Assembly: GCA_030295235.1 (NCBI GenBank)
Contig: AP026157.1
Coordinates: 248,001 to 312,000, forward strand
Length of the DNA stretch: 64,000 nt
Source: Fistulifera solaris
Lineage: Eukaryota
Direction of reading: 5' to 3'
Shown here: positions 56,321 through 63,344 of the stretch, in pieces
Layout of the letters: every line of letters begins with the position of its first letter
Position numbering within the stretch: position 1 is the stretch's first letter
The notes under the pieces: generated by a model
What the model saw: the letters and a program-made list of their open reading frames with translations, nothing else
Told to the model about the DNA's origin: nothing
Databases searched by the model: none
Program-made: the position numbers and the translations under genes

Positions 56321-56386
56321 TTTGTTAGTCGCGACGGCGTGTATCATTCAACTATGGAACCCAACTACACTAGCAAAAGTTATACG

Positions 56387-56586
56387 TCTATCTATCTATC
56401 TATCCATCCATCCATCCATCCATCCATCCATCCATCCATCCATCCATCCATCCATCCATCCATCCATCCATCCATCCATCCATCCATCCATCCATCCATC
56501 CATCCATCCATCCATCCATCCATCCATCCATCCATCCATCCATCCATCCATCCATCCATCCATCCATCCATCCATCCATCCATCCA
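56387..56586. repeat. Compound microsatellite (TCTA)4(TCCA)46
   Basis: TCTA units 56387-56402, TCCA units 56403-56586. Confidence 0.95.
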
Positions 56587-56733
56587 ATATGATGATTCAA
56601 TTTGCACCTTGTTTTTCGTTTTACAGGTCATGCAACATCCGTATTTAAAGCCGCGCGATTATTGATTTCGCTGCGACAGTCCGAAATTGGCTGGCGCAAC
56701 GTAGCAGCATCTGTCTGCACCATGGTGCACCAC

Positions 56734-57134
56734 TGTTGAAATCCACCGATGTCGGGACCGTCGGAGGATTGGGCTGAACGGATCAGAGGCCTGAACGGAT
56801 CAGAGTTGTGTGCGAACGGATTGCTGCAAACGGATTGCTGGTGATAAAACTAGATGCTAATCTTATAAGGCTATCGTATTCTATTGTTCGTGATCTTTTC
56901 ACTTCAAAGATGTCGCATTTCAACATGTAAGATACTCCGTAATAAAATGGCAACGTCAGCTGTATAGGTCTTGTCAGTGTATTGGGATGCTTTTCCACTG
57001 CAGTTAGCCATATCGGGAACGAGTTTCGGAGAATAGTTTGATCGCTGTTCGCTACTCAATTCCCTATAGTAGAACTCGTGTAAACGAGACTTTCCCGTTG
57101 GTTCATGACTCGTTTACTCACGGGTTATTCAACA
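56734..57134 (-). repeat. 3' LTR (401 bp)
   Basis: Matches 62596-62997 by eye except for one A indel. PPT GAGAGGGAG (minus strand) at 57143-57135. Confidence 0.96.
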
Positions 57135-57154
57135 CTCCCTCTCGAACTGCGATT

Positions 57155-60100
57155 TTACCATCCGAGGATTGCCATTCGATGTTTGACAAAGAGATCGTAT
57201 GTCAATGGCTTTGTTAAAATATCCGCGGTTTGTTCGAGTGTATCGATCTTGTGGATTGTTATGTCTCCACTGTCCACGCATTACGATCTGAAGTGGTGAA
57301 GCTTCACATTCAAGTGTTTCGTCCTGGGTCGAGCCTTCGGAACTTTCGCTATTTCCAACGCTCCCGAGTTGTCTTCGAAAACTTTACAATGCACCTTCGG
57401 TCTCCATTCGCTCACATCGAATCCGAGAGCTTGCATTTCCTTCAAGGTGTTCATGATGGGTATCGCGTCTCGTAGCGTAACTCAAACCGGTAAATTCACT
57501 TTCAGTTGAACTCAATGCAATTTCTGTCTGGAGTTGACTCTTGTGATGCAACAATACGCCGGGCGTGGGTGATAAGGAATCCGTGTCGCGAGCGCGCCGT
57601 GTTTCGGTCTTCAAAAGCTATCTCTGGATCCCAGTTGCCTGCGAAGTCGGGCGTCGACATGAACTTCCAAGCTCTTGGAAATATCTGGCTTCAAGATCAT
57701 TCCTTTATCCCTTGTTCCTTTCAAATACTTTCCGAGCCATCTAATTGCATCTCCATGCTCTTTTCTTGGATCGGATGCAAAGCGCGCACTGGTGTACCGC
57801 ATAGGCGATATCTGGCCTGGATCCTCGCGTGAGATAGTTCATTTTGCCGATGACTGAAGTATAATGGAAACTTTTGTCGAATGGAGGCTTAATTTGGGAT
57901 GTTTTGAAAGAAGTTTCCGATGATGCCATGGGAATATCTTTTGTCTTAACTTCGTCTCGCTCGAGTTTTAAGTCTTTGAGTATCGAATCAATGAGGTGTG
58001 GCTGCTTCAGCTCAATTGTCGATTCATCAATCCTGTTGATATTGACACCCAGAAAATCTGATAGATCGCCCTCCACAGTAATGTCTAGCTTGATCTGCTT
58101 CATCTTTTCAATTATTTCTTCAATCTCTTTCTCGTTTGGACCGGCTAGAATGCTGTCGTCCGTGTAGAGAACATACATGGTGTTCTTGTAGTAGAACACA
58201 CATTCGTCGTACTGAGATTGCCTGAAACCAATCTCGATGAGCTTCTTTCGCAAATAGAGAAACCATGTTCGACTTGCATCTTTTGCGCCGTAGACATTCT
58301 TGTGAACCTTCAATACATATTCGTCTGGCGAAGCTCCTTGTATCTTGTAACCTTTCGGTATCGAAAGATATATTTCCTTGTCGCGCGGTGCTTGCGGAAA
58401 AGCTTGAACATAATCGAGTTGCTTTGTTTTCCATCCATGAACAATAACCATTGCTAATAACAAACGAATGGAGCTCCAGTTGGCGACTGGGGAGTAAGTC
58501 AGCTCGTAGTCTCGGCCATACTTCATTCTTGACCCATCAATTGTCAACCTTGCCTTCCACTTCTTGACTTCTCTTGTCATGATATCTCGCTTGCGACGAA
58601 GTTGCCATACAGTTGGGAGGATCGTGGCTCCCTCTGGAACTTGACTTTTCGGAAATAATGAGAAATTTCCGTTTGCCATTTGGTCGTCAATCTCTGTGTC
58701 CATGCCCTTCGAGAACTCAGGCCAATCCGGTTCTTTGCGAGCTTGATGAAGATACATCGAATCGGGATCTGCGCTCGTCTTGAAAACGTAAAATGGATCC
58801 GGTGGGTTGAGCTTTGTCGAAGCACTTTGGAGGGTTTCGTAAGCGAAAATTTCTCCTTTGACGTCGGGAAGTTGATGAGTGAGTTCGCATGCAAACATCG
58901 CGACCATAATCTCTATCAATCGAGTGACTGGACGTCGTCGTCGAGTGCTCCTCTCCCTCTGAGGTTGTGGTTGCGGTGGAGCAGGAAGAGACTCAGCTTG
59001 CTCGTCGATCGGCGGAACATCGGCATCAGGATGTTCGGAAGGTAGAATTGGAGCATTCGGAGGAGGAACGGCTTCGGATTCAAGCGGCTGAGGAACTGGA
59101 GGCGCAGGAGGTGTCACAGAAGGCGAAGATGGTTGTTGGGCGTCAGGAGCGACAACAAAACCGGCTTTGAGTTGCCACAAACAAGTTTTCGCAAGGTCCG
59201 GAACAGTTTCGAATTTCGAATCAAATTTGACGTGAAACTGGGGACTGACGAGGCCTGTGTCGGGGTTGAGTACCAGGGCGACAGACCGACTGTGTACTGG
59301 AGAACGTCCTAAATAGATACCAAGATGTGACCGCAAACGCCATTTGTGAAAAATTCGACTTTTTCCGCCTTGCAATGTTGCGTCGAGAACGAAAACTGGG
59401 CAACCGAAAGGTTTCCAATGAATCGGATTCGAATGAACATCCGTGTTGGCGAAAAGCTGGTAAGGAGTGCGTCGCTCGGCGTGTTTCATATTCGGCATAT
59501 GATTGATGGAATCGTTTGCCATTCGTAAAGCGTACGGCCACAGTTGAGTGGTGATGGCTTGCGGCCATCGATGTTGTGCGTCGATCAACATCGCTCGTGT
59601 GAGTTCTTGCAGCTGTCGAATTCGTCGTTCGGCTCGTCCATTTTGATGATGAGCTCCTACTCCGGCAAAAGAAAGACCTTGACCTTTTGTTGCGCAATCG
59701 TTGACCCATGTGTTCGAATTGAAAATTCCATTGTCGGCATGATAGTGCTTGATCTTCTCAACGCCACAATTGCGAGCTGCATTGTTCGAAAGCTTGCTTC
59801 GCTTCAAGAGTCTCACTTGCACTTTGTGTCTTTTGCAGGTGAACATAACTCAAGTTGGAATACAAGTCGACAAAGACGGTTGCGTACAGGTATCTCTTGG
59901 TTGTCAGAATTCCTGTGAGCTGCGCAATAAAACCGGGCGTAGGCGAAACCATTTGATCCACAGCAACAGTTTGACCAGGGTGAGTCGGAGCTTGAATATT
60001 TTTACCCTGTTTTGCTGGTTTTGTTCGCCACTGACGTTTTGTTGCTCTTCCATAAAGACAGGCAGTGCACACAGGTGTCGGGCACTTGGCAAGTCGGCGC

Positions 60101-61249
60101 GGAATAACTCCTTGCTTCGCGAGTTCTTGAAGCTTCTCCATCGGCGCATGACCGTAAAGTCGATGGTAAGCGAGTAATTCGGCGGCTGGAATGCTTGGAC
60201 TTGTGGCAGTGTCGCTTTCTTGGATTACTGGCTTGTCTTCTTTTCCTTCGAACTCAAAATCAACTGTGCGACTTTGAAACGGTTCAGCTCCCTCTGAATC
60301 TTCGTTTGCTCCCTCTGTAACGTCTGTGGTGTCCTCCTGTGCATCAAAACAAAGCGGATTTTCGTCGTCATCGTCGGGAATCGATGCTTCTGTGCAGAAG
60401 GCTGCAAATTTTCGAAAGCCAGGAGGCCGGAATAGAAAGTCGCGACATTCGAGCTTGTATCGATCGGAACTGTCTTCTTGTTGTTGCCCCAATAGAGAAC
60501 CGCGTGTTTGCTGGTTGTGTCACATCCAGAGAGCTTGTGACCAGTGTGTTTTGCCCAGTGTTGCGGTGACAAAAGTCGAACTTTACCTTCAGGTACGTAA
60601 TAGGAGTTGGGGATTGTAAAGATACCATTTTGCCCTCATCGCTCTCCCATGACCATTTCAGGGTTCCTTTCTTGACATTGGTAGTGCGTGAGCCGCCAAA
60701 GCCCTTGATGATCAAGTTTGTGTCGGAAAGTTCCCCAATAAAGTCACTTGCAACATGGGAGATGCATGCAGAGCATCTATTGTCAATTCCTACGGGAACA
60801 GAGTCCGTATCGAAGGTCGTGGTAAGTACTAGCGGAACTGTGTTGGTGCTGTAACACATTGCTGTCATCATCAGTAAAACTCTTCGCTGTCTGAACTGTC
60901 TTTCTCTCCACCAGTCCATGATAGGATTGCGGAACCGAATGAGTGGTGTGCGAGTGCTTGGATTTGACCTTTTCTTTGCTTGCTTGACGCGGTACTGGTA
61001 TGTTTGCCGCGCCTTGTGTCGTATCCAGTAGGTGTGAACTCGCACCAGGTAAGTCTGAATCGAGTTCTGCGCGCGTTGACCAATTGCTTTCAGTCGGTTG
61101 CTAACAGTTTCCTTTCGAAGTCTCTTAGGAACATAGCGTTTTCCGACGTCATTAGATAGGTCACCAAACAAGCAGAAGACTAGGATAGCGGTGTAGGCGA
61201 GTAGCCAGTTGATGCTCAAGTTGAGACACCGCCAAAGGAACTTGGTAAG
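57155..61249 (-). CDS. pol: Retrotransposon Pol (protease, integrase, RT, RNase H), with several frameshifts
   Basis: PR GIDNRCS; IN H..GH...C..C, VDQ, HADNG and NG.AERRIR; RT QLDYVQAF, KNVYG.K.A.RTW and YTDD; RH ALSSTESE and TADILTKPL, ending ILGW* at 57155. Confidence 0.9.
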
Positions 61250-61276: not shown

Positions 61277-62530
61277 CTAGCTGTCAAATCCTTCATTATC
61301 ATTTTCGCTCTCACTTTCGTCTCCCATTAGTGCTGCGAAGGCCTTGATAAGTTTCTTCTTCTTGGAGTCGATCTTGGTCTTCGAGGATCCGCTTGTTCCG
61401 ATGTTTGCTTGACGACAATCAACCGTTTTGTGCTTTCCCCAGGAGTTGTGGTGGTCGCACCAGAAGTACTCGACCTTTTCCACCGTCTTGTGCTTCGGTT
61501 CGCCCTCTGCGGGAGGTACCGACATCCATTCGGGTTTGGGAGTGTTTCTGTTGCGCTGTGTCTTTCCTTTCAACTGGTTCTTTGCACTGCTTTTCGTGTT
61601 GTTGTTTGTCTTCCTCTTGCTTTCCAACTGCTGGAGTTTTGCCTCCAGGGCCAGGATTTTCTCTTCCTCGGGAGAAGGAGCGTTCCACTGAGAAAGTTGG
61701 ACAAGCATCTTGTACTTGTTGTCCGCAAGATTCATGAGATGATCGGGAGTCATCGAGACGCCTTCGTGGTAATCCTCTTCCTTCTTCATGATGTAGTTCA
61801 CGAAGGTGCGATCGGATGCCGCCTTGTAACCTTTGAAAAGGTTTGCAAGAAGATCATTGGTTGTTTCGCCGCGTGCTGCAAGTCCTTCCAACAATTGTTT
61901 CACGTGCTGGTTGACTTTCGTGATGTTGTGCTGGACTGTGGGCAGATACTGATCAAGGCTTGAGAGTTGCGTGCGGATGTGGGTCACTGTCGCGTTTGTG
62001 TCGATGTAGGTCTCGCGAATGATGACTTTGAAGAGGCAGGGTCCGCTGATAATGCCGTTAATGGTGTACTGGTCCCGCCAGATAGTGATTTTATCGATGG
62101 CGGTCGAACTGAGGTTGTTGAGGAGGCAGTTTGCTGCCATGTAGGAGTCCTGGGCCGCTCGTGTCTGACTGCTGACATAGGTGCGGGCATGTTCCTGGAT
62201 GTGCTCCAAAGTGATATCACCGTAGTTGGTGATCAGGTTCGTCGTGTGCTGGGCAGGTTCGGCCTGCTCAAGGTCGACTGGGATGTTGAAGATGATTCCC
62301 CATCCAAAGTTGTTGGCATGGATGCCAAATGCCTCGATGAAGGCAACGCATGCGACCGGGATCGCGAAGTCAAAACGTTCTTCGCCAATCTGCTTCGTAG
62401 CAGTCTCGTACAGGCGAGAACCCTCACGGGTGGCGAAGTTAATGACTTGGTTTGTGCTCAAGCCGGGGCTTAGAGCGAAGGGAACTGCGTTGGGCGCGGC
62501 GTTGGCGTTGTTCGCGTTAGCGTCAGCCAT
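61277..62530 (-). CDS. gag: Retrotransposon Gag
   Basis: ORF starting MADANANN at 62530, with a variant knuckle WCDHHNSWGKHKTVDC and an acidic tail. Confidence 0.85.
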   Translation of the reverse strand: MADANANNANAAPNAVPFALSPGLSTNQVINFATREGSRLYETATKQIGEERFDFAIPVACVAFIEAFGIHANNFGWGIIFNIPVDLEQAEPAQHTTNLITNYGDITLEHIQEHARTYVSSQTRAAQDSYMAANCLLNNLSSTAIDKITIWRDQYTINGIISGPCLFKVIIRETYIDTNATVTHIRTQLSSLDQYLPTVQHNITKVNQHVKQLLEGLAARGETTNDLLANLFKGYKAASDRTFVNYIMKKEEDYHEGVSMTPDHLMNLADNKYKMLVQLSQWNAPSPEEEKILALEAKLQQLESKRKTNNNTKSSAKNQLKGKTQRNRNTPKPEWMSVPPAEGEPKHKTVEKVEYFWCDHHNSWGKHKTVDCRQANIGTSGSSKTKIDSKKKKLIKAFAALMGDESESENDNEGFDS

Positions 62531-62595
62531 TTCGTCGGAACGAAAGAAGTCGTCGTGAAAGCTCGGAGCTTTGTTGTCACTTGGCAGAGGAAGCG

Positions 62596-62997
62596 TGTTG
62601 AAATCCACCGATGTCGGGACCGTCGGAGGATTGGGCTGAACGGATCAGAGGCCTGAACGGATCAGAGTTGTGTGCGAACGGATTGCTGCAAACGGATTGC
62701 TGGTGATAAAACTAGATGCTAATCTTATAAGGCTATCGTATTCTATTGTTCGTGATCTTTTCACTTCAAAGATGTCGCATTTCAACATGTAAGATACTCC
62801 GTAATAAAATGGCAACGTCAGCTGTATAGGTCTTGTCAGTGTATTGGGATGCTTTTCCACTGCAGTTAGCCATATCGGGAACGAGTTTCGGAGAATAGTT
62901 TGATCGCTGTTCGCTACTCAATTCCCTATAGTAAGAACTCGTGTAAACGAGACTTTCCCGTTGGTTCATGACTCGTTTACTCACGGGTTATTCAACA
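62596..62997 (-). repeat. 5' LTR (402 bp)
   Basis: Direct repeat of 56734-57134, upstream of gag on the minus strand. Confidence 0.96.
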
Positions 62998-63344
62998 CAC
63001 CACGATGACATAAACGAGTTGCCCTTCAGAATCCAAACAAAAAAATAATGAGCCTGACACACATACTTTATCATTTGTACAAATAATACACCGCTTCCTT
63101 TTCTTTGACTCCTCATCGTGCTCTGAAATATGATGATGGAACGGAATTTTTCCGCGAGCAGGTATTGTTCTCACAAGCTCTCTTGTTCAACTACATGTTA
63201 TCAATTCAAACTAAAAAGTACGCTAAAATCATGCTACTGTTTATGGACGCACAATCTTGCCGCAATCTATCTCACTAAGCAAGTTTTTTACAGCCGTGCA
63301 GACATTTATTATTCATCATTCATTCTTTCATTCATTCATTCATC

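Follow-up and report, generated by a model that had tools for sequence, protein, structure and literature searches.

An initiator tRNA D-arm match as the probable primer-binding site of a diatom Ty1/copia clade

How does a Ty1/copia retrotransposon initiate reverse transcription when the bases next to its 5′ long terminal repeat (LTR) hold no TGG to pair with the CCA end of a tRNA? The question is raised by a 6.26 kb Ty1/copia element on the minus strand of a 64,000 nt stretch of the diatom Fistulifera solaris genome (AP026157.1, 248,001-312,000; hereafter the window, with feature coordinates counted from window position 1), which houses at this location a site matching the D-arm of initiator tRNA-Met (tRNAi-Met). 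We consider it likely that this site is the working primer-binding site (PBS) of a widespread diatom Ty1/copia clade, and that a tRNAi-Met molecule cut in the D-stem would prime from the 3′-OH of G24 or U25.

The site adjoining the 5′ LTR is complementary to the host initiator tRNA

Read along the minus strand from 62595 to 62584, the PBS CGCTTCCTCTGC directly adjoins the terminal CA of the 5′ LTR (62596..62997, 402 bp, TGTTG...CAACA) and contains no TGG, as the original prediction had stated. This boundary is fixed by the match to the 3′ LTR (56734..57134, 401 bp) and by the 6-bp target-site duplication GTGGTG, located at 62998..63003 on the 5′ side and at 56728..56733 on the 3′ side (all features on the minus strand). 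The prediction also proposed that the host tRNAi-Met would hold the exact complement, and two tRNA-Met(CAT) genes, on contigs C5 and C6, do contain GCGCAGAGGAAGCGTGCTGGG, which is complementary to all 12 nt of the PBS. Both genes specify an A1-U72 pair, a G-C-rich anticodon stem and an AUCGAAA T-loop, which we take to be initiator hallmarks that mark them as tRNAi-Met. The PBS is complementary to this tRNA from G24 back to G12, a span comprising the 3′ strand of the D-stem, the D-loop and part of the 5′ strand of the D-stem. Counting the terminal CA of the LTR, the match in the window is 14 nt long; the predicted continuation through the whole LTR sequence TGTTG (to 62600) fails, as the tRNA goes on TGCTG and pairing stops after TG. 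A pattern search of the F. solaris genome (51.7 Mb) with this 14-mer returned four matches, namely the two tRNA-Met(CAT) genes, the window element and a second element.

As such, the PBS 12-mer is common in the assembly, with 27 matches compared with 20 for the reversed control, as might be expected if the match had arisen by chance. The 27 matches comprise 11 elements of the clade described below, the two tRNAi-Met genes and 14 other places, none of which has an Rfam match. It is the position at the LTR junction, not the rarity of the 12-mer, that exceeds chance: under a crude uniform model, the probability that a 12-nt match would begin precisely where the LTR ends is 4e-6 with this tRNA and 2e-4 with 60 tRNAs, and the site recurs at the LTR junction in 28 sequence clusters. 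The junction position and the clade-wide conservation lead us to reject a chance match, which the prediction had left open and to which we assign almost no probability. Exact-pattern searches of the whole assembly found no better host partner RNA for the PBS than tRNAi-Met, which agrees with the predicted absence of a better-pairing RNA, and within the assembly the 14-nt core of the clade, ending in GCGC, is restricted to the two tRNAi-Met genes and eight elements. The Rfam tRNA search of the genome does not provide a full tRNA list, since scores were obtained for just 63 of its 1922 candidates, most of them located on the small, probably organellar contigs C57-C62.

The site is conserved in the clade of the window element and in its relatives

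To place the site among the copia elements of the same genome, we searched with the reverse transcriptase (RT) and obtained 87 matches, corresponding to 70 places besides the window, at which LTR junctions were read by script. Of these 71 places including the window, 30 have an anticodon-type tRNAi site, 15 a palindromic site and 10 the D-arm site. The remainder resemble the anticodon regions of tRNA-Asn (three places) or tRNA-Ile (two), have a 3′-CCA site (one) or a deleted variant (one), lack an LTR pair (five) or fall into none of these types (four, one of which, L012, has the D-arm site as well). Every one of the 11 elements in this genome that belong to the RT clade of the window element carries the D-arm site, 12-16 nt long and flush with the 5′ LTR. 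Support for the clade in the Shimodaira-Hasegawa-like approximate likelihood ratio test (SH-aLRT) is 99 in a 71-row tree (L014 dropped) and 100 in a 17-row tree; the former was built by a quick method with 12 of 71 rows dropped (RT piece <150 aa), and the 17-row trees had 2 of 17 rows dropped for RT and 8 of 17 for integrase.

Three LTR types occur within this clade. A sister family with 78% DNA identity to the window element has LTRs that end in GA and a site reaching as much as 16 nt (G24-U8), and the window PBS looks like this 16-nt site minus one GC dinucleotide. A more distant member, L011 (60% RT identity), has a 14-nt site and an LTR without blastn similarity to that of the window element. 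Members of the clade make 6-bp duplications (eight read by script, two more by eye), and the anticodon-type and CCA-type families of the same genome make 5-bp duplications.

For relatives in other DNA, we searched with an alignment of 60 Gag sequences, chosen because selection on the site itself had to be avoided, so that the search was blind to the PBS. It retrieved at least 52 metagenome loci and three contigs from genome bins, with Gag identities of 30-54%, and no relative in IMG/VR. Among the matches listed, to which all counts of foreign loci here and below refer, the exact core CGCTTCC-N-CTGC lies upstream of gag in 28 of 55 loci, L090 has a one-base deletion of the core, and the contigs L084 and L121 start inside the site; a further 19 of the 55 loci have no upstream DNA and hence are uninformative. 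The site is therefore kept, in 28 cases exactly and in three damaged or cut off, by 31 of the 36 foreign relatives that have upstream DNA, which bears out the expectation that it would be conserved among copies. In 13 of the 28 exact loci, an LTR of 343-564 bp is recognisable from a polypurine tract (PPT) with TG after it, and the CA end of this LTR adjoins the site. The foreign set and four representatives from the F. solaris genome form 28 sequence clusters. Three of the foreign loci, L127, L128 and L129, are diatom-type copia contigs inside bacterial bins (Janthinobacterium, Rhodobacteraceae and Symploca records), most likely through binning contamination.

Complementarity ends just short of commonly methylated tRNA bases

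Across the 28 exact foreign loci, 11 of the first 12 positions are identical in 28/28, as required by the search pattern. Beyond the pattern, position +13 is kept in 27/28 and +14 in 26/28, and then a C opposite G9 is found in just 2/28. Conserved complementarity thus runs from tRNA base G24 back to G10 and is lost at G9. The final A of the LTR never varies and might pair with U25, and the base opposite G26 is G in nine copies from the F. solaris genome (LTR end GA) and T in the foreign locus L105 (LTR end TA). Since these LTR ends lack a Watson-Crick pair with G26, the primer likely ends at G24 or U25. A primer length of 23-24 nt is accordingly the most likely on sequence grounds; from the 23-25 nt range first proposed, this retains the lower part, and a 25-nt primer running to G26 is disfavoured by the GA and TA ends.

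Anticodon-type sites of the same genome also adjoin the LTR, end at sequential base 39 (standard number 40) and have no C opposite G26 in 30/30 loci, which represent few families. In yeast and human, G9 of tRNAi is N1-methylated (m1G9). Of the two PF01746 genes in the F. solaris genome, one was tested, and it matches solved Trm10 G9 methyltransferases (E 4e-32). Trm10 makes m1G9 widely, and G26 is dimethylated (m2,2G) in 127 of 160 eukaryotic cytosolic tRNAs (PMC10275265, in part). The limits of the D-arm and anticodon-type sites therefore have in common that the next base is one often methylated on its pairing face.

A proposed primer cut in the D-stem

Because the PBS is complementary to an inner part of the tRNA, the tRNA would have to be cut to yield a primer. 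We propose that the host tRNAi-Met would be cut in the 3′ strand of the D-stem, leaving a 3′-OH at G24 or at U25, the latter paired with the last A of the LTR. The D-arm from G10 to G24 would be melted onto the PBS, with pairing ending at G10 because G9 is presumably N1-methylated, and RT would extend straight into U5 to give minus-strand strong-stop DNA. Our best guess is that the cut would follow annealing of the D-arm to the PBS in the particle, the nuclease being one whose products end in a 3′-OH, either the RNase H of the element or a host activity of the RNase P type; capture of a ready-made host fragment would be an alternative source. The Tf1 primer is made by the RNase H of the element, and RNase P has reportedly been proposed for the copia primer, judging by reference titles. 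Such a primer would retain the 5′ end of the tRNA and would therefore be a 23-24-nt 5′ fragment of the size class of tRF-5b, which comprises fragments of 22-24 nt arising from D-stem cutting (PMC10869971, in part).

Folding predictions are compatible with annealing of such a fragment. A 23-nt 5′ fragment of tRNAi-Met has a predicted folding energy of -2.0 kcal/mol (-26.0 for the whole tRNA), and its predicted pairing with the PBS amounts to -27.8 kcal/mol for the window element, -39.0 for L006 and -34.5 for L011. In six copies of the sister family, the duplex continues through U8 and, past one bulge, into the 5′ strand of the host acceptor stem as far as C3. This extension is the strongest among 39 elements scored against the host tRNAi-Met, with 95 of 3000 shuffles equally strong, and is suggestive of a primer that retains the 5′ end of the tRNA.

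The primer might instead be an internal tRNAi-Met fragment of about bases 10-24, without the 5′ end. Conservation does halt sharply at G10, and short D-loop and anticodon fragments have been reported for nine tRNAs of Phaeodactylum tricornutum (PMC4247016, in part). The stop at G10 is, however, also expected from m1G9, and one lineage pairs on to U8 and past the bulge to C3. In addition, A stands opposite U8 more often than expected (18 of 24 clusters, p 1e-4), a signal that is weak because it is matched by an A excess at +21, and which might at best be a faint trace of RT reading through m1G9. We therefore judge an internal fragment to be quite improbable.

Several observations weigh against a 5′-end-retaining, D-stem-cut primer. 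Five of the 55 foreign loci (L093, L099, L100, L115 and L116) do not have the site; their upstream DNA is short or rearranged. The extension towards the tRNA 5′ end is confined to a single lineage, and the window copy shows it weakly; the A excess at +21 (17 of 24 clusters) weakens the signal opposite U8. Contigs from four of 18 small-RNA runs, compared with the tRNAi-Met gene, revealed no RNA ends, which assembled contigs are unable to display. The sole substitutions in the core, in L075 (G) and L128 (A), count in favour of the proposal, as both face D-loop base 16, which varies among tRNA-Met genes. Among 35 tRNA-Met genes found in 34 of 80 IMG/VR loci, this base is A in 18, G in 12, U in four and C in one; the pattern used to find these genes fixed every other position and so shows variation at base 16 only. 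The two substitutions are consistent with covariation with the host base but do not prove it. Against the proposal, finally, in the small RNA data of P. tricornutum, tRNA-Met(CAT) has modest coverage and no listed tRNA fragment pattern in the available part of the report, which does not tabulate lengths of 21-30 nt (PMC4247016).

Does synthesis start at the D-arm duplex?

Inner tRNA arms can pair with element RNA for reasons other than priming at that point: Ty1 and Ty3 make extra pairings of this kind. By this precedent, the D-arm site could anchor or package tRNAi-Met while synthesis starts elsewhere, either from the CCA end of the intact tRNA through a split PBS or from another host RNA, and the primer end is predicted here from the sequence. 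On the other hand, the D-arm duplex fills the very bases flush with the LTR end, which a primer would need for its 3′ end, and a CCA end would find no TGG to pair with. Another host RNA is also hard to reconcile with the restriction of the 14-nt core to the tRNAi-Met genes and the elements, and with the lack of Rfam matches at the other 12-mer places. We regard an anchoring role without priming as unlikely.

Self-priming by the element RNA, from a 5′ end of the Tf1 type or through the kind of hairpin or dimer suggested where sites are palindromic, would make the tRNA match a relic. Palindromic-site families of the same genome lend this some plausibility, as they share the CA|CGCTT start and the 6-bp duplications of the D-arm clade, and self-priming is listed for the copia TAR lineage (PMC6317226, in part). 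However, the longest complement to the PBS within the LTR is 4-6 nt in 17/17 LTRs tested, which agrees with the predicted absence of a partner for Tf1-style priming and on which we reject that version. The PBS is non-palindromic and mostly unpaired in three predicted leader folds. Moreover, a self-primed site could drift together with its partner, whereas in 28 clusters the PBS adheres to the tRNA sequence. We therefore rate self-priming as slightly less probable still than the internal fragment, and favour priming by the D-stem-cut tRNAi-Met.

In three copia families of the F. solaris genome, the PBS position is occupied by a palindrome, CGCTTATAAGCG or CGCTTTAAAGCG, in which both arms have changed together (loci L035-L044, L046, L047, L049, L053, L054, L063 and L067). 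These sites share their opening CA|CGCTT with the D-arm site, and their second arm equals tRNAi-Met bases A20-G26. A sister relationship between the palindromic families and the D-arm clade is not shown, as the RT trees do not settle it; in the integrase tree, from which the palindromic families dropped out, weak support (84) joins the D-arm clade to anticodon-type families. Palindromic self-priming in a Thalassiosira pseudonana copia element is reportedly the subject of a Repbase note.

Relation to known priming modes

The closest known system is the half-tRNA priming of the Hemivirus type (Drosophila copia and 1731, yeast Ty5, Volvox Osser, and the plant Osser, Bryco and Gymco-II lineages), in which the PBS of a Ty1/copia element likewise abuts the 5′ LTR and is complementary to an internal portion of tRNAi-Met (PMC1181622, PMC6317226 and PMC10275265, each in part). 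Hemiviruses use a short tRNA segment according to the ICTV profile, and the D-arm clade would, from its site, do the same. The two differ in the point of initiation: the Hemivirus primer starts at the 3′-OH of nucleotide 40 in the anticodon stem-loop (PMC1181622, PMC6317226), while complementarity in the D-arm clade covers G24-G10 and would place the start at G24 or U25 in the D-stem, 15-16 bases earlier. The D-arm PBS (bases 10-24) has no overlap with the anticodon-type site carried by other families of the same genome. This suggests that priming in the D-arm clade resembles the half-tRNA priming of copia and Ty5, with the cut in the D-stem and not in the anticodon stem.

Other systems are more distant. 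CCA-end priming of the Pseudovirus/Sirevirus type (Ty1, animal GalEa) uses the same tRNAi-Met, and L029 of this genome has such a site, but the D-arm clade has neither a TGG nor complementarity to the 3′ strand of the acceptor stem. The self-priming systems of Tf1/sushi, Tcn1 and copia TAR, and the Conserved Hairpin Site of fungal GalEa, likewise lack a TGG-type PBS; the D-arm clade differs from them in having no LTR complement longer than 6 nt and no palindrome, and in having a fixed match to a host tRNA instead. The Conserved Hairpin Site is a palindrome of 9-10 nt with a downstream reverse complement, unlike the non-palindromic and mostly unpaired PBS described here, and was reported in fungi together with an anticodon-type tRNA-Lys site (Donnart 2017; PMC5445492, in part). 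The diatom CoDi elements (Maumus et al., 2009, PMC2806351; Llorens et al., 2009, PMC2774666) are alike in copia domain order, in a length of about 6.3 kb and in young LTRs, and the available main texts of these two papers, which define CoDi, neither discuss primers nor mention tRNA.

Three primer types of LTR retrotransposons are distinguished by Neumann et al. (2019), namely a whole tRNA, a half-tRNA cut in the anticodon stem and a self-primer, and a primer ending in the D-stem is absent from these types in the part of the text available (PMC6317226). Likewise, the accessible portions of Benachenhou (2013) and of two tRNA reviews hold nothing on D-arm primers, and literature searches, including by the PBS letters, found no description of D-arm priming, with GyDB, Repbase, subscription journals and the supplement of Maumus et al. 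outside their scope. With less assurance than for the PBS itself, we lean towards the wider proposal of a fourth LTR-retroelement primer class in a large clade of pennate and centric diatoms, in which a 23-24-nt 5′ fragment of tRNAi-Met would be produced by a dedicated D-stem cut after annealing of the D-arm, the limits of the PBS would record m1G9, and the palindromic CA|CGCTT families may use an in-cis mimic of the same D-stem strand instead of the tRNA. If this is correct, a D-stem-ended primer would stand beside the three types listed, and 5′ tRNA fragments of 22-24 nt would gain a direct role as replication primers. The long-open question of which agent cuts the tRNA in half-tRNA priming would become testable in a transformable alga, and PBS finders built to scan the 3′ ends of tRNAs would report no PBS for an entire diatom clade.

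Structure of the window element

The window element is a young Ty1/copia copy, whose LTRs are identical at 401/401 aligned bases and one indel apart. Its assignment to Ty1/copia (Pseudoviridae) is based on two TG...CA LTRs, the target-site duplication, a PPT (GAGAGGGAG, 57135..57143) and a copia-type RT with integrase upstream, the latter recognised by a weak GAG-pre-integrase match. All coding regions lie on the minus strand. The gag open reading frame (61277..62530, 417 aa), which begins 53 nt past the PBS, is open; its product has no match in a Pfam search and has 285 relatives, including an F. solaris protein at 75%. An open frame at the start of pol (60368..61249) has no Pfam match and from its position probably represents the protease region. 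It is followed by a pol piece at 59758..60519 with the weak match to PF13976 (E 3e-4, below the cut-off) and another at 57741..59849 that contains the rest of the integrase and the copia-type RT (PF07727, E 5e-38). Relatives of this pol bear both PF13976 and PF07727, and the named RT relatives are from Cylindrotheca and Chaetoceros (61%).

Since pol of the window copy is spread over several frames in this assembly, the copy is either broken or miscalled. The same is seen in most copies of this genome: very young copies with LTRs 97-100% identical, including the window copy (57155-61249), show pol, and in many cases gag, split over several frames, perhaps through indel errors of the assembly and not through decay.

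Further junctions in the genome survey are of other kinds. Judged by eye, those of L068, L069 and L073 resemble tRNA-Asn anticodon arms and those of L070 and L071 tRNA-Ile, as in the half-tRNA type, and L065 and L072 have no junction match to tRNAi-Met longer than 5 nt. In several anticodon-type families (L016-L034 and related loci), a short CAC(G/A)C lies 2-3 bases past the site and could pair with tRNAi-Met bases 26-22 across a bulge; many of these copies have a T-to-C change opposite the anticodon, and their LTR ends are non-canonical (GA, CT). The 3′-CCA site of L029 (G000:C3:475960-485959) shares its first T with the last base of the LTR, which ends in AGTCAG...CTGACT instead of TG...CA. 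In the window itself, a long GATG/GATA microsatellite occupies 56338-56630, about 150 bp beyond the 3′ LTR.
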